Assembly (NCBI RefSeq): GCF_963518105.1
Contig: NZ_CAUQID010000005.1
Length of the DNA stretch: 64,000 bases
Origin: an uncultured Selenomonas sp.
GTDB taxonomy: Bacteria; Bacillota; Negativicutes; Selenomonadales; Selenomonadaceae
Strand: one strand, 5' to 3'
Part shown: in pieces, positions 56,596 to 63,194 of the stretch
Position numbering within the stretch: the stretch's first letter is position 1
Layout: each line of letters begins with the position of its first letter
The notes under the pieces: generated by a model
Databases searched by the model: none
What the model was told of the DNA's origin: nothing
What the model saw: the letters and a program-made list of their open reading frames with translations, nothing else
Made by a program: the position numbers and the translations under genes

Positions 56596-57252
56596 TTACT
56601 CTGCCGCTGCGGTGCTGCCCGCTGCCTCGCGCACGAGAACCCGGCTGCCGCTGACGGACAGAACAACAATATGCATTCCCTTTGCAATGAATGCGCCTTC
56701 GGAGATGACATCGACCGGTTTCCCGCCGATGCGTGCTGTCCCGGATGGATGCAGCTCCGTGAGCACCTCCCCTGTTTTCCCTACGAGTTCCGTCTGCTCC
56801 GCAGCGCTGACATAGCCCTGCTCGCTGCGGGCGCTGCTGTGCAGCACCATCTTGTTCCACAACCTGCTCGAGGGGAGACGCGAGACAATCAGCAGGAAGA
56901 TGAGCACCGCGAGGAGCAGGGCAATCCCCAGCGCCGCCAGTGCACCGATGTCCCCGCCGAGTGCGAGCACGATGCTGTACAGCATCGCCGCTACGCCGAG
57001 TCCCGCGAGCAGCCCCACCGTCGGCAGCAGGATCTCCACGATGATCATGAGGACACCGGCGAGAAATACGGCGATATGGTACAGTTCCACCAGTCCCCGC
57101 GTATACTGACTGCCCCAGAACACGCCGGCGGCAACGATACCGAGCAGGACGCCCACGCCCATGCCGCCTGTTTTGACCTCCACCATCACGGAAAGGAACA
57201 TCACGGCAAGCAGCAATATCTGCAGTGCCGTACTGTCTACAATGAGGTTCAT
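56596..57252 (-). CDS. nfeD: NfeD-family membrane protein
   Basis: 218 aa, multiple TM helices and a C-terminal OB-fold ([29 protein letters not shown]). Upstream partner of floA. Confidence 0.88.
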
Positions 57253-57305: not shown

Positions 57306-57349
57306 GTGAAAAGTGGAGCTTTCAGTTTCATCTACTGAAAGCTCCACTT
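57306..57349 (-). terminator. Host terminator that originally followed tRNA-Pro
   Basis: 15-bp perfect stem aagtggagctttcag/ctgaaagctccactt, followed on the minus strand by TTTTCACAAT. Confidence 0.75.
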
Positions 57350-57353
57350 ATGT

Positions 57354-57407
57354 CCAAATAAATGGTCGGAACGACAAGATTTGAACTTGCGGCCTCTTCC
57401 ACCCCAA
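57354..57407. repeat. att direct repeat, distal copy (orphan 3' 45 nt of tRNA-Pro plus 9 nt of flank)
   Basis: 54/54 identical to 63109-63162. Confidence 0.95.
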
Positions 57408-57523
57408 ACATTCTAAAGGACTATGGATACGCTTCCAAACAATAGAAACACTACGCATTAACAACTTTTTCTAAGGGCATCAAGCACCACTTTGATGCTC
57501 TTATAAAGAGTTGCTAATTCTGC

Positions 57524-57552
57524 TTGCGCTTTTCCTCCATCACCTGTATAAT
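57524..57552 (+). promoter_or_regulatory. Promoter of the micro-ORF toxin candidate
   Basis: TTGCGC, 17-nt spacer, TATAAT. Confidence 0.6.
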
Positions 57553-57625
57553 GCACAGCGAACCCCTTAGGCATAGGCGGCTACTTCTTCACCTCTCCGA
57601 CTCTATAAGCGGGAGGTGGTGCAAT

Positions 57626-57697
57626 ATGAGTTATTACGAGTTTATCCTAATTCTGGTACTCGTCACTAGCTTGATCGTTGCTGTAAAAAAGAAATAA
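57626..57697 (+). CDS. 23-aa hydrophobic peptide, candidate type I toxin (Fst / holin-like-toxin style)
   Basis: SD GGGAGGTGG 9 nt upstream. Sequence MSYYEFILILVLVTSLIVAVKKK is one TM helix plus a Lys tail. The SD is sequestered in a hairpin. Below the ORF-track size cut-off. Confidence 0.5.
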   Translation: MSYYEFILILVLVTSLIVAVKKK

Positions 57698-57778
57698 CCG
57701 CCCTACTTTGACACGGTAAGCGGTTATTCCCGTCTTTCTGTGAAGAAGTAGCCGCCTTATAGGGGTTCTTCTCTTTGT
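57684..57778 (-). ncRNA. Candidate antisense antitoxin RNA (about 95 nt)
   Basis: Runs from the promoter at 57785-57813 to the hairpin terminator. It contains no ORF and is fully complementary to the last toxin codons and the 3' UTR. Confidence 0.4.
57693..57728. terminator. Shared hairpin terminator of the convergent toxin and antisense units
   Basis: AATAACCGC/GCGGTTATT is a 9-bp perfect stem that can be extended with a bulge. It is followed by TCTTTTTT on the minus strand and by CCCGTCTTTCTG on the plus strand. Confidence 0.6.
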
Positions 57779-57784
57779 GTCTTT

Positions 57785-57813
57785 ATCATAGCAAACGCAG
57801 CCAACTTTTGCAA
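57785..57813 (-). promoter_or_regulatory. Promoter of the antisense RNA
   Basis: Minus strand: TTGCAA, 17-nt spacer, TATGAT. Confidence 0.55.
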
Positions 57814-58155
57814 GGCTTTCTAAACGCTGAATTTTGCAAAATATTTGTGAGCGGGTATATATATTATTCTGTGTGTCTCATTCCCCCGCGCCGGCACCCG
57901 CGCCCCGCCGCCTGTGAGCGGGTGCAGGGAGACACTCCCCCCATTCATTTCACAGAGAGCAGACACATACCAAGGCAGCGCTGCCGCGCGTGAGCAGGTG
58001 TGGATGTGTGTGTATAATTCGCATAGGTTCTTGATTGTCTTATTTCCTCAATGTGTAAATTTAGACCACCCTCTATTTTTACACTCTAAGACAACCTCCG
58101 AGCCGTGTTAAATAAAGTCCTTTTTTAATTTTATTTACAAATGTCCTCAACTTCA

Positions 58156-58184
58156 TTGACTTTATATTTACACTTTGTTACACT
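58156..58184 (+). promoter_or_regulatory. Promoter of the serine recombinase gene, overlapped by TTACAC repeats
   Basis: TTGACT, 17-nt spacer, TACACT. TTTACAC/GTTACAC words at 58167 and 58177 lie in the spacer and the -10. Confidence 0.5.
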
Positions 58185-58228
58185 CATGACATCAACAACA
58201 GTGTCAGCAGTCAAAGGAGTGTTGCAGC

Positions 58229-58804
58229 ATGAAAGTTGGATACGTGAGAGTGTCAACCGTAGAGCAGAACGAGGAGAGGCAGACCCGTGATCTGCAAGAA
58301 GCAGGAGCAGAGCGCCTCTTCATTGACAAACTGAGCGGAAAAGACACAAAACGCCCCGCCTTGCAGGAAATGCTAGATTTCGTGCGTACAGGTGACACCG
58401 TGATAGTTTCTGAATACTCACGTCTGGCACGCAGCACACGTGACCTATTAGATATCATCCAGACCCTGCGGGACAAAGGCGTAGCAGTCACGAGCCGTAA
58501 AGAATCCCTTGACACATCCACGCCGCAAGGAAAGATGATGCTAACAGTTATCGCAGGTATGGCAGAATTTGAGCGGGCGCTTATGCTGCAGAGACAAAAG
58601 GAGGGGATAGCAATAGCAAAAGAACAGGGCAAATACAAGGGCAGACAAAAAGCCGAGAAGCCCGAACAGTGGCAGGTATGGCGGGAACAATACCAGACCA
58701 GACAGATCACAGCGACAAGGCTAGCTGAATTGTGTGGTGTCTCTCGTCCCGTGGTTTACCGTTGGATGAAAGAACAGGCGCAAGCCCCTATCTGTGGGAG
58801 GTGA
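58229..58804 (+). CDS. Small serine recombinase (resolvase/invertase family) with a C-terminal HTH
   Basis: MKVGYVRVSTVEQNEERQ (catalytic Ser motif), SRLARSTRDLL, and the C-terminal motif ATRLAELCGVSRPVVYRW. Confidence 0.92.
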   Translation: MKVGYVRVSTVEQNEERQTRDLQEAGAERLFIDKLSGKDTKRPALQEMLDFVRTGDTVIVSEYSRLARSTRDLLDIIQTLRDKGVAVTSRKESLDTSTPQGKMMLTVIAGMAEFERALMLQRQKEGIAIAKEQGKYKGRQKAEKPEQWQVWREQYQTRQITATRLAELCGVSRPVVYRWMKEQAQAPICGR

Positions 58805-58808
58805 TAAT

Positions 58809-59264
58809 ATGGACAAAGACACACAAGACACACAGCACCCCCCTAAAAAGAGAGGACGAAAAGCCACAGGCAGACGCAGAAGGCAAATGTATCTCACCGA
58901 TGAGGAGAGGGAGCAGCTTATGACCCTGCTGCATGACATCAGGCACGATGAGCCCCCCATTCGCTACAATGCCATAAAGACACAAGCAGAGGAGGAATAC
59001 ACAGCCGCTGTAAAGAGTGAGGCGCAAGGCTCTAACAGACCCGTCCATACCATCAGCTATTACAGAGCAGAGGCGCTCTATCACCTGATTGATATTCCTT
59101 GCAAACTTACGCCGTACAGAAAAGAAGTGGCACAGATGAAAGACCAACTAGAGCATGAGCGTTGGCAAAAGCAAGGCATGACAGATGAGGAACTGAGAGC
59201 AAAGAGAGCCGCCGAGGAAATGGAACATTGGAAGCGCATTAATGCAGATTGGCTAAATCCCTAA
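58809..59264 (+). CDS. Hypothetical protein (151 aa) with a very basic N-terminus
   Basis: ATG 58809 is preceded by GGGAGGTGA, which includes the recombinase stop codon. The segment PPKKRGRKATGRRRRQMYLTDEEREQL resembles ribbon-helix-helix/MobC-type leaders, but no firm family assignment is possible. Confidence 0.6.
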   Translation: MDKDTQDTQHPPKKRGRKATGRRRRQMYLTDEEREQLMTLLHDIRHDEPPIRYNAIKTQAEEEYTAAVKSEAQGSNRPVHTISYYRAEALYHLIDIPCKLTPYRKEVAQMKDQLEHERWQKQGMTDEELRAKRAAEEMEHWKRINADWLNP

Positions 59265-59270
59265 AGCACA

Positions 59271-59307
59271 AGCCTTTTGACACTTTGTCAAGGGGCTTTT
59301 CTATTTT
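59271..59307 (+). terminator. Rho-independent terminator after orf151
   Basis: agccttttgaca/tgtcaaggggct followed by TTTTCTATTTT. Confidence 0.75.
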
Positions 59308-59617
59308 ACCTATCAATAACGGTTATGTACAGAATAGATATTTTGACTATTTAATAAATCCAGTAATATCAATGCTCTACGGGTAATTTGTCTATGGAAC
59401 TTTATTGGTGGCACACAAGGAGAAGGGAAAACGCTTTTTGCCTTGACACCCCTGCTGCATTGTGGTAATGCAAGATATCAGCAAAGAGGAGGGAGAGAAA
59501 TAATAGCACTTCTCTCTTCTCTCCTATGCAGCATAACCAATACAGCAGAGAGAGTATGTGTGAAAATTTATTTTCTATACCCTATTGACAAACCAGAATG
59601 ATTATGTTACGCGCGTA

Positions 59618-59880
59618 TTATATAATTATATAAACTTTAAGATACTTAAAGTACCTAGTTAGTTAACTAAAGACTATGCTACTACTACTCTAATAAAAAT
59701 AATAACTTATAAGCTATTATTTATAGTTCTTAATAGACTATTACACTAAAGCTATATAACTATATCTCTTATAAGCTATCCCCCTTATCTTATTTGTCTT
59801 AATAGCTATACTCTCTCTCTGTTTGTCTTATAAGCTATGCTATATAGCTATATGTCTTGAAGATACTTAATAGCAATAAC
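59618..59880. repeat. AT-rich palindrome and iteron block (origin-like)
   Basis: 16-bp palindrome TTATATAATTATATAA (59618-59633) and 12-bp palindrome TTAGTTAACTAA (59659-59670). AAGATACTTAA occurs twice (59639, 59860). CTTAWWAGCTAT-like words lie at 59706, 59729, 59768, 59798, 59827 and 59866, plus 59985. Confidence 0.6.
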
Positions 59881-60210
59881 TCCTAAGGTGCATAGTGGTA
59901 GAAGTGCAATAAACTAGCGTACAGAACATTTGGAGACACAGTTATGCACTGACACACCCCCATAGAGACAACAAAGCCCTATCCCTTATAGCTATGAGGA
60001 TGAGGGCTATTTTTGTTTGTCTTTTTGTTTATGTGTCTATGAAGGCATCATAGGAGCATATTCATAGCACACTCGCAAGCTAGTGTATTTTGAGCCTCTG
60101 AAATGTGTGAGGGTATACCAGGGTATAGGCTGAGCATTTCAATGTCTCTATCGTGAGGAGGGCTTCACAAAAACGGAAAAATATAAGGGATTAGACACAT
60201 ACCTATCCCC

Positions 60211-60408
60211 CTATCTTTTGTCTTTCGCTCTGAACGTCATTTCATGACCCAATACAGAGAGCAAAGCTGAGAGGTCTTTTACTGTGAGAGAATTGCGCTG
60301 AAACTTATTGTGCAGCCCCTTCTCGTGCAACCCTGCTTTCATCGCTAACTCTTTGAATGTCATACCCTGAGTACTTGCGAGGGCTTTCAGTTCCTCTTTC
60401 AAATCCAT
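60211..60408 (-). CDS. Small Xre/Cro-like HTH protein (65 aa)
   Basis: GGAGGT SD. MTFKELAMKAGLHEKGLHNKFQRNS fits a helix-turn-helix. Divergent from the orf158 operon. Confidence 0.7.
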   Translation of the reverse strand: MDLKEELKALASTQGMTFKELAMKAGLHEKGLHNKFQRNSLTVKDLSALLSVLGHEMTFRAKDKR

Positions 60409-60439
60409 AGCCGCATACCTCCACTCATAAAATTATACC

Positions 60440-60495
60440 TTGACAGGTTGCGTTTTCGTGACTATTATGTCTTATGAGGTCACGTTTTCGCAACC
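60440..60495 (+). promoter_or_regulatory. Rightward promoter embedded in a 17-bp-arm inverted repeat
   Basis: TTGACA, 17-nt spacer, TATTAT (60440-60468). The arm GGTTGCGTTTTCGTGAC (60446-60462) faces GTCACGTTTTCGCAACC (60479-60495). Confidence 0.55.
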
Positions 60496-60503
60496 ATACT
60501 TTC

Positions 60504-60720
60504 GGACATTTTTGTCCATGTTCAACATCCCGCCATCCCTTGAATTATCGGCAAAATCCCCCACACAGGACTTTTTGCCAAATTTGGCAGAAACCCAACT
60601 TGAACATTTTTGTCCATGTTCAACATCCGTTAATCATCACTAAGGGTACAACCTACTCAATTCTGAGTAGATTCACCATAGAGGGAATTTTGAACATTTT
60701 TGTACGAAATCCCGCCATCC
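60504..60720 (+). repeat. Modular direct repeats in the long leader of orf158
   Basis: The 27-nt repeat 60504-60530 versus 60602-60628 is 26/27 identical, and each copy contains GAACAT-N8-ATGTTCA. A partial third copy lies at 60692-60704. CGCCATCC occurs at 60531 and 60713. There is a perfect palindrome TGCCAAATTTGGCA at 60576-60589. Confidence 0.7.
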
Positions 60721-60755
60721 ATTTTTTCATCACACTTTGCAAAGGAGAAAACACC

Positions 60756-61232
60756 ATGCAGAAGACAAACAACCAGATCACCAACCCCGCCGCTACTCCT
60801 TCTGTCACCATCACCACGATCACCAACGAGGGAGAGACAACCCACACCATCACCGATCAGGAGGCTGTCACTGCCATTCAAGAGGCGTACGAGGACGCTA
60901 AAGCATACCGTGAGGATGTGCTGAATGACCTTGTGCAGCGTGCGATCGACAAAAGCATTGATGAGAAGTACCGCCGAATTATCGGCAACATGAGCGGCTT
61001 CCTTGCTGATTTGTCTATGAGACCTTCAGGCGCGGCATATCAGGGCTTCACCCACAATTACCACCTTGCTATGTCCCACCTCTGCAAAGCTGTCTATGAA
61101 CAGGCGGTGAAGGACTTTGTGGAGCTTCCAAACACCATTGAGAGACTGAGGGAAGACTTCCACGATCGCACCGCTGAACATATCCATCCTTATGACTTCC
61201 GCTATGAACCCTCCTATCCCATTGCGGATTAA
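60756..61232 (+). CDS. Hypothetical protein (158 aa)
   Basis: ORF-track entry 60474..61232 trimmed to ATG 60756 (AAAGGAGAA SD; MQKTNNQITNPAAT...). No recognisable motif. Confidence 0.65.
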   Translation: MQKTNNQITNPAATPSVTITTITNEGETTHTITDQEAVTAIQEAYEDAKAYREDVLNDLVQRAIDKSIDEKYRRIIGNMSGFLADLSMRPSGAAYQGFTHNYHLAMSHLCKAVYEQAVKDFVELPNTIERLREDFHDRTAEHIHPYDFRYEPSYPIAD

Positions 61233-61258
61233 GGAGACACACAGCGCATAGGGGCTAA

Positions 61259-61285
61259 GGGCTTCCCATTGGGAGGCTCTTTTTC
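61259..61285 (+). terminator. Rho-independent terminator after orf158 (possibly partial)
   Basis: gggcttccc att gggaggctc followed by TTTTTC. Confidence 0.6.
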
Positions 61286-61327
61286 TATCATCACACCCGC
61301 CATCCATCAGGAAGGAGACAACACACC

Positions 61328-61642
61328 ATGCCAACAAAGACAACCACCAAAGCCGAATCATTCGCGGGGCTCTCCACCATCGAACAGGAGACAGTCATCA
61401 CCATTGACCGCGAGACACGCCGCGCCCGTATCTACACCAGTGATACCCGCTTTATCAACAAGCTCGATAAGCTCTATGAGCGGAAGAAGGTGCATCGCAA
61501 TGCAGACGGGATTACGGCGGTAGAGTATGAAGTCCCTGAGAAGCTTGTGTCATTCCGTCGGCGTTTGATGAATCTCACCGATGAAGAAAAGCGGCAAAGA
61601 GTGGCACACTTGCACAAAAAGAGGGAGGAGAATAAAGCCTAG
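61328..61642 (+). CDS. Hypothetical protein (104 aa), Lys/Arg-rich
   Basis: GAAGGAGA SD; MPTKTTTKAESFAGLSTIEQETVITIDRETRRARIY... No recognisable motif. Confidence 0.65.
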   Translation: MPTKTTTKAESFAGLSTIEQETVITIDRETRRARIYTSDTRFINKLDKLYERKKVHRNADGITAVEYEVPEKLVSFRRRLMNLTDEEKRQRVAHLHKKREENKA

Positions 61643-61783
61643 AATCAATTCTATTCATTCTACACTCCTAAATTTAGGGGTTTTGACACATTGAAATACT
61701 TCACGCGATACTTTATATGCGTCGATGATTTCAATAGCCGTAAACAGCGAACTAGAGCGTAACAGACACATAGACACCAGAGA

Positions 61784-61816
61784 GAGCTTCCCATAGATCA
61801 GGGAGGCTCTTTTTTT
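61784..61816 (+). terminator. Rho-independent terminator
   Basis: gagcttccc...gggaggctc followed by TTTTTTT. The stem sequence is nearly the same as in the 61259 terminator. Confidence 0.75.
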
Positions 61817-61980
61817 GTGTCTTTCTGTCTGGCTACTACATCCGCTTGCGCGGGGAGACAACAAAGCCCGATCACTCTGTTTGTCTTTCCCGTGTGCTTT
61901 TTATTTACAGGTGCTACACACTGCGCTATCATGAAAGCGTTAATGTGTAGTGCTTCTTTACTGAGCAAAGGAGCATTGCA

Positions 61981-63015
61981 ATGAGCGATACAATCACCAT
62001 GACCAAAGAACAGTTACAGGAAGCTATGAAGGAGGTATTGCAGGGACTTCCCAATATCCAGACAACACCAGCCATCATGCAGGGGGATACCATCACTCTG
62101 AAAGAGTATGGCGGGGATTTCATGGAGCAGAAGCGTCACAGCGTATCTAAGACAACCCACTCTAAGAGTGCCGTCCTCTATCGGAAACACATCCTACCAG
62201 AATTCGGGGAGCAGACACTTGCCTCTATCACCCGTGTACAGGTGCAGAGCCTCATCAATGGCATGGCAGACCAGCGTTACAGCATGGAGACAATCAAGGC
62301 CACAAAGTGTCTATTCTCCTCCATCATGGAGCTTGCCGCCTCTGATCGGCTAATCCCCGCCAATCCCTGTAAGGCTGTCAAATTGCCAAAGGTGGAGAAG
62401 CGCAAGAAGCGTGCGCCTACCCTAGAGGAGTACCAGAGACTGTTAAAGGCGAGCGCAGGACATCGGCTATGGATAACAGTGCCTCTCATCTTCCTCACAG
62501 GCATGAGAATTGGTGAAATGCTGGCTCTCACATGGGATGATATCGACATGGAGAATCGATTGATTCATGTGTCTAAGACGTGGAGCACTGAGAATGGGAG
62601 CGGCAGGGCATACCTGAAAGACACACCCAAGACAAAAGCAGGCGTACGGCACATCCCCATCTGCGATGAACTGTATACCATGTTGAAACGCTATCGGGAG
62701 CAACAGGGTAAAGACAAACACATTGTCATCCCCAAACAGGATGAGGACGCTTATACGCATCCGCAGGTGTTCAGAGGGAAGATATTCAAATACTGGTGCT
62801 ATGCGGCTGATTTGCCGAAAGACATAACACCACATTCAGGCAGACACTACTTTGCCTATCACCTCTATGCGGCAGGAGTGAACCCCGAGACCCTTAGACA
62901 CATCACAGGACACAGTGACATATCAACTCTTCTGGATGTGTACTGCCACACCGATAAACTTTCAGACGAAACCTTGATTCAGACACGCACTGTCATGAGT
63001 GCGCTCTGCGGGTAA
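61981..63015 (+). CDS. int: Tyrosine-type site-specific integrase
   Basis: 344 aa with an SAM-like N-domain. Catalytic residues: TGMRIGE (Arg), HSGRHYF (His-x-x-Arg), GHSD, and the VYCH tyrosine. Promoter TTTACA, 17-nt spacer, TATCAT upstream. Confidence 0.93.
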   Translation: MSDTITMTKEQLQEAMKEVLQGLPNIQTTPAIMQGDTITLKEYGGDFMEQKRHSVSKTTHSKSAVLYRKHILPEFGEQTLASITRVQVQSLINGMADQRYSMETIKATKCLFSSIMELAASDRLIPANPCKAVKLPKVEKRKKRAPTLEEYQRLLKASAGHRLWITVPLIFLTGMRIGEMLALTWDDIDMENRLIHVSKTWSTENGSGRAYLKDTPKTKAGVRHIPICDELYTMLKRYREQQGKDKHIVIPKQDEDAYTHPQVFRGKIFKYWCYAADLPKDITPHSGRHYFAYHLYAAGVNPETLRHITGHSDISTLLDVYCHTDKLSDETLIQTRTVMSALCG

Positions 63016-63108
63016 ATAGTCCCAGTTTGGTAGAGTTTTCCTAGGCTTCTAAGCAAAAAAATGGAGCTTTCAGTATCGCACACTGAAAACCCCGAAAGCC
63101 TTGTATAA

Positions 63109-63162
63109 CCAAATAAATGGTCGGAACGACAAGATTTGAACTTGCGGCCTCTTCCACCCCAA
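63109..63162. repeat. att direct repeat, tRNA-proximal copy
   Basis: 54/54 identical to 57354-57407. Covers the tRNA from the anticodon loop to CCA plus 9 nt downstream. Confidence 0.95.
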
Positions 63163-63194
63163 GGAAGCGCTCTACCAAGCTGAGCTACGTCCCG
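63118..63194 (-). tRNA. tRNA-Pro (anticodon GGG), CCA encoded
   Basis: The minus strand reads CGGGACGTAGCTCAGCTTGGTAGAGCGCTTCCTTGGGGTGGAAGAGGCCGCAAGTTCAAATCTTGTCGTTCCGACCA. It folds by hand into a 77-nt cloverleaf with anticodon loop TTGGGGT. Confidence 0.93.

Follow-up and report, generated by a model that had tools for sequence, protein, structure and literature searches.

How can a small genetic element spread if it encodes no transfer machinery of its own? The question is raised by an insertion of 5,755 bp (5.76 kb) in the tRNA-Pro(GGG) gene of an oral Selenomonas. It lies in the window, which is the whole 64,000-nucleotide stretch of DNA from an uncultured Selenomonas sp. analyzed here. 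We are nearly certain that the insertion is a site-specific mobile integrative element and that it has been mobile recently. Pfam, PHROGs, NCBIfam, and PADLOC scans revealed no replicase, relaxase, terminase, or capsid gene in it, as a preliminary description of the locus had reported, and PADLOC matched no defence system. The element would need a helper because no transfer machinery is encoded, and the best candidate for this helper is a phage. The most likely mode of spread is phage hitch-hiking as a minimalist phage satellite, to which we assign a little less than an even chance. The preliminary description had named a satellite or an integrative mobilizable element (IME). The choice is not settled, and it now leans toward the satellite because the element carries a gene, p104, that is linked to terS in phages.

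Insertion site and empty sites

The element is bounded by an exact 54-bp direct repeat, the copies of which (attL and attR, Table 1) are offset by 5755 bp. The match lengthens to 59 nt at 97% identity. A single tRNA-Pro(GGG) maps to the attR side (ARAGORN, Rfam), and the repeat therefore covers its last 45 nt, from the anticodon loop to the end of the encoded CCA, together with 9 nt of 3' flank. Both the position and the content of the repeat agree with the preliminary description. An exact repeat that holds the 3' half of a tRNA gene cannot be a chance match. The intact tRNA was said to have its own consensus promoter, and the promoter scan returned a 12/12 sigma-70 match ahead of it (TTGACA-17-TATAAT, 63234 to 63206, minus strand). 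At the other end, a perfect 16-bp hairpin comes after the orphan copy, and then nfeD (56596–57252, minus strand) and floA, an order that had been read correctly as far as nfeD. The integration position is the tRNA-Pro between nfeD and a flagellar/chemotaxis cluster. The interior is AT-rich, as first described, with a G+C content of 0.32–0.52 compared with approximately 0.58–0.64 in the flanks.

Beyond the repeat, positions 57309–57345 and 63057–63093 match at 78%. The preliminary description had recorded this imperfect similarity and attributed it to tRNA-flank DNA carried over from an earlier host. The similarity is real. The element-side copy is terminator-like on the tRNA strand, and an equivalent hairpin adjoins attR in every family member. 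Judged from its sequence, the copy functions as the new terminator of the tRNA in place of the host hairpin, and it need not be solely a relic of an earlier host.

The occupancy of the site was compared among conspecific contigs encoding an NfeD protein identical to that of the window, seven of which were empty and three occupied. In the seven metagenomic contigs with an empty site (L001, L003, and L006–L010), tRNA-Pro is directly abutted by the host hairpin, followed by nfeD, and the 54-bp segment is present in one copy. This is the arrangement that the preliminary description had proposed to look for. Among the occupied contigs, L002 carries the window element (100% identity over 5,951 bp), and L004 and L005 carry a recombinant variant at the same site. 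Direct repeats at the target tRNA, a tyrosine recombinase with an intact catalytic domain, and unoccupied sites in relatives are all present for the window element.

The gene content is as initially listed: an integrase (PF00589), a small serine recombinase (PF00239), a weak Cro/C1-type helix-turn-helix (HTH) protein, and three open reading frames (ORFs) without a family (p151, p158, and p104), besides a 23-codon micro-ORF. All six ORFs are intact and under purifying selection, with ratios of nonsynonymous to synonymous substitution rates (dN/dS) of 0.07–0.39.

p104 and its link to Selenomonas phages

The p104 protein is small and basic (12.3 kDa), with an isoelectric point of 9.9 for the window copy and 9.5–10.2 overall, and it has more than 214 homologues. 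Homologues with 59–73% identity occur in two unrelated Selenomonas phage types at more than 20 phage loci. In every phage case, the gene is located immediately upstream of terS. The first phage type (approximately 67 kb; L029, L050, L056–L069, and the IMG/VR contigs L074–L081) has the order (methylase)-p104-terS-terL-portal. The second is T7-like (L036–L038), with the order methylase-p104-gp18-like terS-T7-type terL. In these 42-kb contigs, genes for a single-subunit RNA polymerase and for a tail and terminase of the T7 type are accompanied by genes for a tyrosine integrase and an excisionase-like HTH protein, and the T7-like phage is apparently temperate because the last two are present. A 21-mer, ATTGTCCCACATATAAGAGAA, occurs in four copies in 16 kb of this phage and is a candidate phage promoter.

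The DNA similarity between the element and the phages spans p104 and approximately 80 nt past its stop codon. Inspection of this stretch showed a cis module of approximately 90 nt, conserved in the elements and in both phage types, which comprises the palindrome AGAATCAATTCT, a covarying hairpin, and a promoter-like TTGACA..ACGCGATACTTTATATGCGT box (61683–61712). The stretch shared by elements and phages thus includes a terminator besides the box. Each element or phage has a single ACGCGATACTTTATATGCGT box, which invariably comes after p104; the element L071 has two. In L071, the whole post-p104 module is duplicated (3843 and 6045). Of these copies, the second stands after the serine recombinase gene and is directed toward an ORF-less slot equivalent to the AT-rich region of the window element.

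Two kinds of variation affect p104. In phages with 99–100% identical TerS/TerL (L029, L056–L069, and L074–L081), the N-terminal 75 residues are constant, and the basic C-terminal tail of approximately 27 residues occurs in at least five discrete alleles. The tail SGVTTRVYTDEERRILSER.KKQRAKKA was also observed in the homologue P0091. In the elements, the window copy and L004 come from the same species and the same site, and their res, p151, hth, and int genes are nearly identical (synonymous difference, pS, 0–0.05). Between 60600 and 61950, in contrast, pS reaches 0.40 for p158 and 0.37 for p104. This points to a swap of the p158–p104 cassette by recombination. The swap looks recent, and it resembles a specificity-cassette exchange.

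The best explanation that we can offer has, taken as a whole, an even chance of being correct. The insertion itself is shown: the element's own tyrosine integrase recombined attP, through its 54-bp segment, with the 3' half of tRNA-Pro(GGG), and the tRNA was thereby regenerated and given a replacement terminator. The 65-aa Cro/C1-like protein would repress the divergent p158–p104 operon via three palindromic sites. The type I toxin/antisense-RNA pair would discourage loss of the element, and the serine recombinase would probably resolve multimers that arise after excision. Replication or another function in cis would probably be the role of the AT-rich iteron region; the corresponding slot of sister elements holds a gene for a putative small HUH nuclease. 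p104, together with its module, would sense or trigger the packaging operon of the helper, and an alternative role for the module would be that of a packaging signal. The element would leave in helper capsids, probably as a concatemer.

A more specific proposal is tentative, and we hold it with clearly less confidence. According to it, the element may belong to an undescribed satellite family of minimalist design in the Negativicutes (oral Selenomonas), which would possess, rather than genes for a terminase or for capsid remodelling, its own copy of the late-operon switch of the helper (p104 and the target module). This copy would let the element sense or fire the packaging genes of the helper. 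The p158–p104 cassettes would be exchanged to track helpers, and the phages would shuffle the p104 tail. The type I toxin locus would persist at the att site, in the form of tandem remnants, after the elements themselves were lost.

Several observations weigh against phage hitch-hiking and against the role proposed for p104. A scan of the metagenome contigs with a degenerate attP pattern returned no exact match. A circular form was not seen either, as the fetched contigs showed no terminal overlap and none of the contigs was circular. The window copy has no recognizable replication initiator, and the window itself contained no helper phage. The only element present in phage, plasmid, and viral-contig collections is an L071-type copy in one 17-kb IMG/VR contig. 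The terminases of the two phage types are unrelated; therefore, action of p104 via a specific TerS is disfavored. The terminator between the p104 module and int means that a coupling of the module to excision is not evident. The element was also scanned for promoters of the helper RNA polymerase, and the candidate consensus from L036 (ATTGTCCCACATATAAGAGA) had no match within 3 mismatches.

The protein itself provides further points of this kind. p104 matched no characterized protein in sequence or fold, including RinA/ArpU, and its description as a late activator is an analogy only, drawn from gene position and physico-chemistry. Pfam and NCBIfam gave no match, the sole PHROG was phrog_1709 (function unknown), and a p104 profile scan of genome contigs found nothing. 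The structural model is beta-rich with one helix (predicted local distance difference test, pLDDT, of 71). Its PDB matches were non-significant (E ≥ 0.45), and its matches in BFVD were uncharacterized phage proteins only.

Element family and competing explanations

The members of the family were located via p104 homologues, and they have been found so far only in oral Selenomonas metagenomes. The hth gene (on the minus strand), a p158-like gene, and p104 are present in all of them, and a tyrosine integrase completes the core. In three Selenomonas lineages, the integrase is at the right end, and the longer contigs display the site between nfeD and tRNA-Pro. A fourth type (L071 and L082) is distinguished by another integrase, located at the left end, and by an excisionase-like HTH protein encoded next after p104. 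The left part is variable, with the serine recombinase present or absent depending on the element type. It is an accessory gene, found in the window and L012 and absent from L030, L040, L041, L044, and L048. The middle slot is occupied either by the AT-rich region (window and L030) or by p177, an ORF of 177 aa, with 11-bp-period repeats (L012, L043, L045, L052, and others). The view that no described family fits the element was upheld by four HMM libraries and by DNA searches against phages and plasmids; the whole-element searches of the phage and plasmid collections gave no match.

The p151, p177, and AT-rich segments bear most directly on how the DNA might be replicated or transferred. p151 is represented by only 17 clusters in 5.8 billion proteins, with homologues in the window, L012, L030, and L047 element types and none detected in the L071/L082 type. 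Its basic N-terminus (KKRGRK..RRRRQMYLTDEEREQL) may form a ribbon-helix-helix (RHH), and residues 17–47 gave a weak, sub-threshold NCBIfam match to UrfF, ‘plasmid repression protein F’. p177 (L012 6041–6574; L047 4027–4623) directly follows p151/p141 in L012- and L047-type elements. It is absent from the window and L030 types, and none was detected in the L071/L082 type. The motifs FxGTLR, LH[VL]HFLL (HUH-like), and NYVMANYE (with the Tyr) are kept at 47% identity, and a weak Pfam match to REP_ORF2-G2P (E = 0.06) falls below the curated family thresholds; PDB and NCBIfam gave no match. p177 is a candidate HUH nuclease (Rep or relaxase), and its sequence may represent a very small, undescribed HUH family. 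Profile searches against solved structures with p104, p158, p151, and p177 gave no match.

The stretch of about 1 kb without ORFs in the preliminary description corresponds to the AT-rich region, which is conserved and iteron-like. Three promoter-like sites lie in it, as do a (TA)n run of variable length (approximately 59617–59630) and iteron-like repeats (TTGTCTTAWWAGCTAT, approximately 59700–59860), and it is 77% conserved in L030 with long invariant islands. The (TA)n run differs in length between the window element and L004, which are otherwise 98.5% identical. This variation is microsatellite-like and located beside a promoter-like site.

Among the competing explanations, the IME survives best, and we consider it unlikely. 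The excised circle would be nicked at an origin of transfer in the AT-rich region and exported through the conjugation pore of a co-resident integrative and conjugative element or plasmid. p151 would be an RHH relaxosome accessory protein and p177 a small HUH relaxase in the sister elements, with a relaxase acting in trans on the window copy. The resemblance of the p151 N-terminus to small RHH plasmid regulators, the adjacency of p151/p141 and p177, the nuclease-like motifs of p177, the inverted and direct repeats of the AT-rich region, and the lack of packaging genes are all consistent with this arrangement. However, no relaxase, coupling protein, or MOB match was found in the window element with Pfam, PHROGs, and NCBIfam. 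p177, which is missing from two of the types, could equally be a rolling-circle Rep. An IME would also leave unexplained why the conserved core contains a phage gene along with the cis module that is located upstream of terS.

A plasmid-like integrative replicon is somewhat less probable again. It would alternate between the integrated state and a low-copy circle and spread passively, by transformation or generalized transduction. The iteron region would be replicated via p151 or p158 (p177 in relatives), and p104 would be a regulator borrowed from phages to control the genes of the element itself. A resolvase, a type I toxin–antitoxin, and iteron-like AT-rich DNA form a classic maintenance set, and the relatives have a candidate HUH Rep. 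Against it stand the lack of circular contigs, of any plasmid-database match, and of a recognizable initiator in the window copy. The nfeD-associated types, on contigs long enough to show the flanks, are moreover all at one chromosomal site.

That the element is an immobile relic, such as the decayed end of a prophage or an old island still bearing its att repeats, is very improbable. Its small size, the failure to recognize structural, replication, or transfer genes, and the absence of a detected excised form would suit a relic, but the 54-bp repeats are perfect and the ORFs are all intact and under purifying selection. Presence and absence also differ among strains with identical NfeD, and the same site holds several allelic types, one with a recent cassette swap. 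Finally, a tandem duplication of the tRNA 3' half without site-specific recombination, the refuting alternative named in the preliminary description, accounts for the repeat itself and nothing more, and it is refuted because the empty sites have exactly one 54-bp copy, with nothing else between tRNA and hairpin, and the 5.7 kb between the two repeat copies has a foreign composition and contains an integrase gene.

The integrase retains the R..HxxR..Y residues in its translation (dN/dS 0.10–0.28) and has its own promoter-like site at 61904–61932. In the serine recombinase (dN/dS 0.07–0.10), PF00239 spans residues 3–136, the N-terminus reads YVRVST, and a C-terminal HTH lies at 156–184. A search for res or inversion sites found TGTCT-containing repeats, which were abundant and unspecific. 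The HTH protein is 97% identical in L030 (dN/dS 0.08–0.14), and it is likely the repressor of the rightward operon. The rightward promoter (TTGACA-17-TATTAT, 60440–60468) and the leftward promoter (60493 to 60464) diverge, and the 290-nt leader of the rightward operon carries three palindromic operator-like sites, G(G/A)ACATTTTTGT(C/A)C, at 60504, 60602, and 60692. p158 is found in only 4 clusters (50% identity) in a set of 1.84 billion representatives and gave no family or PDB match. A structure-based assignment of its function was attempted and abandoned, as the AlphaFold model was unusable (pLDDT 44.5).

The pentamer AGACA (RAGACAM) is approximately 8-fold over-represented within the element (57408–63108), and AGACAC was observed 24 times where 2.6 occurrences are expected (z = 13.9). 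The plus strand carries 34 copies and the minus strand 20, and 23 of the 29 copies within ORFs are on the coding strand. AGACA forms the core of the iteron-like repeats and also appears just after terminators (TTTTTGTGTCTTT). The same enrichment was found in the L012, L024, L030, and L033 elements; the L029-type phage has none, and the T7-like phage has a mild one. These copies are possibly a binding-site array for an element protein.

Table 1. Features of the element and its insertion site, in window coordinates.
Feature	Position	Strand	Evidence
Host tRNA-Pro terminator hairpin, split from the tRNA by the element	57311–57349	-	Perfect 16-bp inverted repeat
attL, orphan copy of the 54-bp crossover segment	57354–57407		Exact repeat of 63109–63162; single copy in empty sites
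Type I toxin-like locus	57527–57775	+	RNA fold, ORF conservation, covarying helix
Candidate antitoxin RNA (predicted)	57690–57813	-	Promoter scan; terminator read from sequence
Promoter-like box TTGCAAAATATTTGTGAGCGGGTATATAT, then invariant TTCCCCCGYG	57833–57895	+	In every element type
Small serine recombinase (resolvase/invertase type)	58229–58804	+	PF00239 E = 7.5e-44; phrog_125 DNA invertase E = 8e-66
p151, family-specific protein	58809–59264	+	dN/dS 0.19–0.25
Conserved AT-rich non-coding region, candidate origin or cis site	59265–60210		G+C 0.32–0.39; no ORF
65-aa Cro/C1-like HTH protein	60211–60408	-	Weak HTH_26 and phage-repressor PHROG matches
Divergent promoter region and long leader	60440–60720		Promoter scan, repeats, motif scan
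p158, acidic core protein, family orphan	60756–61232	+	dN/dS 0.17–0.22
p104, small basic protein shared with Selenomonas phages	61328–61642	+	phrog_1709 E = 1.4e-16
Conserved cis module after p104	61643–61725	+	Conserved in elements and both phage types
Terminator-like hairpin between p104 module and int	61779–61814	+	Terminator scan; conserved in elements
Tyrosine integrase, 344 aa	61981–63015	+	PF00589 E = 2.5e-27, PF14659; phrog_1 E = 7.5e-67
Element-borne replacement tRNA terminator, hairpin and T-run	63063–63093	-	Terminator scan; 78% like host hairpin
attR, 54-bp segment within intact tRNA-Pro(GGG)	63109–63162		Repeat and tRNA position
tRNA-Pro(GGG), regenerated by insertion	63118–63194	-	ARAGORN; Rfam RF00005, 63.3 bits

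Toxin-like locus, related systems, and significance

The micro-ORF near the left end, listed in the preliminary description as a toxin candidate, lies in a locus of type I toxin–antitoxin architecture. This assignment is well supported by the sequence, with the RNA antitoxin being predicted. The locus starts with the promoter TTGCGC-17-TATAAT (57527–57552), and the micro-ORF encodes a 23-aa peptide (57626–57697, MSYYEFILILVLVTSLIVAVKKK) with a hairpin downstream. The Shine–Dalgarno sequence is sequestered in a hairpin that pairs CACCTCTCC with the ribosome-binding site GGGAGGTG. A long-range 5'–3' helix of the mRNA (57560–57592 with 57740–57772) encloses the whole ORF, and the fold of the locus has an energy of -84.7 kcal/mol (z = -5.65). 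The helix is kept in 8 distinct copies, which show compensatory CG to AU (4/8) and GC to AU changes and U.G/U.A alternation. The peptide length of 23 aa and its character are kept in 5 variants.

The candidate antitoxin would be transcribed convergently from a TG-extended promoter (TTGCAA-17-TATGAT, 57813 to 57785), the -10 box of which is conserved in the alignment. A minus-strand hairpin followed by ATTTCTTTTTT (about 57730 to 57690) is its predicted terminator. The predicted product is an antisense RNA of approximately 80–90 nt that overlaps the 3' end of the toxin mRNA. The candidate antitoxin RNA had no Rfam match. We also considered that the perfect 18-bp inverted repeat around the micro-ORF might be an inverton, i.e., a target of the neighboring invertase-like recombinase. 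This idea was rejected because L004/L005, the sole distinct variant, is collinear and has no inverted copy. The arms also covary on the plus strand in a G.U-compatible, RNA-helix-like manner; for this reason, a structure of the toxin mRNA was preferred.

The type I loci txpA/RatA and bsrG/SR4 belong to prophage-like elements in Firmicutes. The present locus shares with them a short hydrophobic peptide with a basic C-terminus, a sequestered Shine–Dalgarno sequence, a highly structured mRNA, and a convergent antisense RNA over the 3' end, which is predicted here. It differs in its peptide, which has only 23 aa and fits no known toxin family, and in the long 5'–3' clamp around the ORF, a feature in the style of hok or AapA1.

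In a sister lineage (L012 3400–4022; also L013, L014, L016, L024, and L027), two additional toxin loci, one complete and the other partial, are situated outside attL on its nfeD side. These extra copies are remnants of earlier insertions, of which only the toxin locus survived, and such toxin-only leftovers are what is expected of an addictive module.

The left end also contains the TTGCAAAATATTTGTGAGCGGGTATATAT box with its invariant TTCCCCCGYG (Table 1). This box adjoins integrase genes as well, both in the T7-like phage L036 (12418–12480) and in the L071-type element (2618–2680). It showed no conserved RNA structure. The GC-rich segment 57866–58010 was examined as a possible structured RNA and rejected, as it gave no consensus structure and no Rfam hit.

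The element can be placed by comparison with known systems. It resembles the islands of tRNA-targeting tyrosine integrases in having the integrase beside the intact tRNA, a crossover in the 3' half, a regenerated tRNA, a foreign composition, and presence or absence among strains. It is, however, unusually small for such an island, it has no cargo, and its other core genes fall in no described family. The phage-inducible chromosomal minimalist islands (PICMI) of Vibrionaceae are satellites of approximately 6 kb without capsid or terminase genes, which can be packaged as concatemers (PMC10803314). They are defined by AlpA (PF05930/PF12728), a DUF3987/DUF5906 primase, and integration beside fis (PMC10803314). 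The window element is similar in its size, in its integrase with few further genes, in the lack of capsid-remodelling and terminase genes, and in a helper-dependent logic, which is only proposed here. It is not a PICMI because the AlpA-type regulator, the DUF3987/DUF5906 primase, and the fis site are lacking. Instead, it resides in a Negativicute host and carries an Xre-like repressor, p158, p104, a serine recombinase, and a type I toxin–antitoxin.

In Staphylococcus aureus pathogenicity islands (SaPI), helper late-gene control by RinA/Ltr is central to transfer (PMC3152322, PMC3753634). The window element is like these and other phage-inducible chromosomal islands (PICI) of Gram-positive bacteria in that the integrase occupies one end and the gene for a small repressor is divergent from the main operon. 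It is not a PICI, as Pfam, PHROGs, and NCBIfam revealed neither a replication module (rep/primase or helicase, with ori) nor a packaging module (terS or cos, and capsid or capsid-size genes), and it is one third the size. In place of helper-interfering proteins, it carries a homologue of a helper gene in the position of a late activator. Activators of the Ltr/RinA type are small and basic, come last in the early cluster, bind upstream of terS, and have C-terminal specificity (PMC3753634, PMC3152322). p104 is similar to the Ltr superfamily (RinA, ArpU, and LtrC) in size, basicity, its place before terS in phages, its variable C-terminal part, and the promoter-like region between the gene and terS. 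It differs in that it belongs to the superfamily neither by sequence nor by Pfam or PHROG membership, and its predicted fold has no significant match.

Small helper-dependent elements, or ‘hitchers’, are thought to be numerous, and they are rarely recognized because they lack hallmark genes. To our knowledge, no satellites have been described for this member of the human oral microbiota; a full-text literature search connected phage satellites with Selenomonas in a single paper, which concerns Vibrio cholerae satellites and contains the genus name once. The window element provides a tractable example: its borders are exact, its site occurs naturally in the empty state, several allelic types exist, and helper phages are linked to it by a concrete candidate. 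Its 23-aa toxin locus with the hok-like 5'–3' clamp is a clean new candidate for a type I toxin–antitoxin. Should the p104 link prove functional, the element would possess the late switch of its helper, which would be a new form of helper exploitation, and phrog_1709, a widespread phage family, would gain a testable role.

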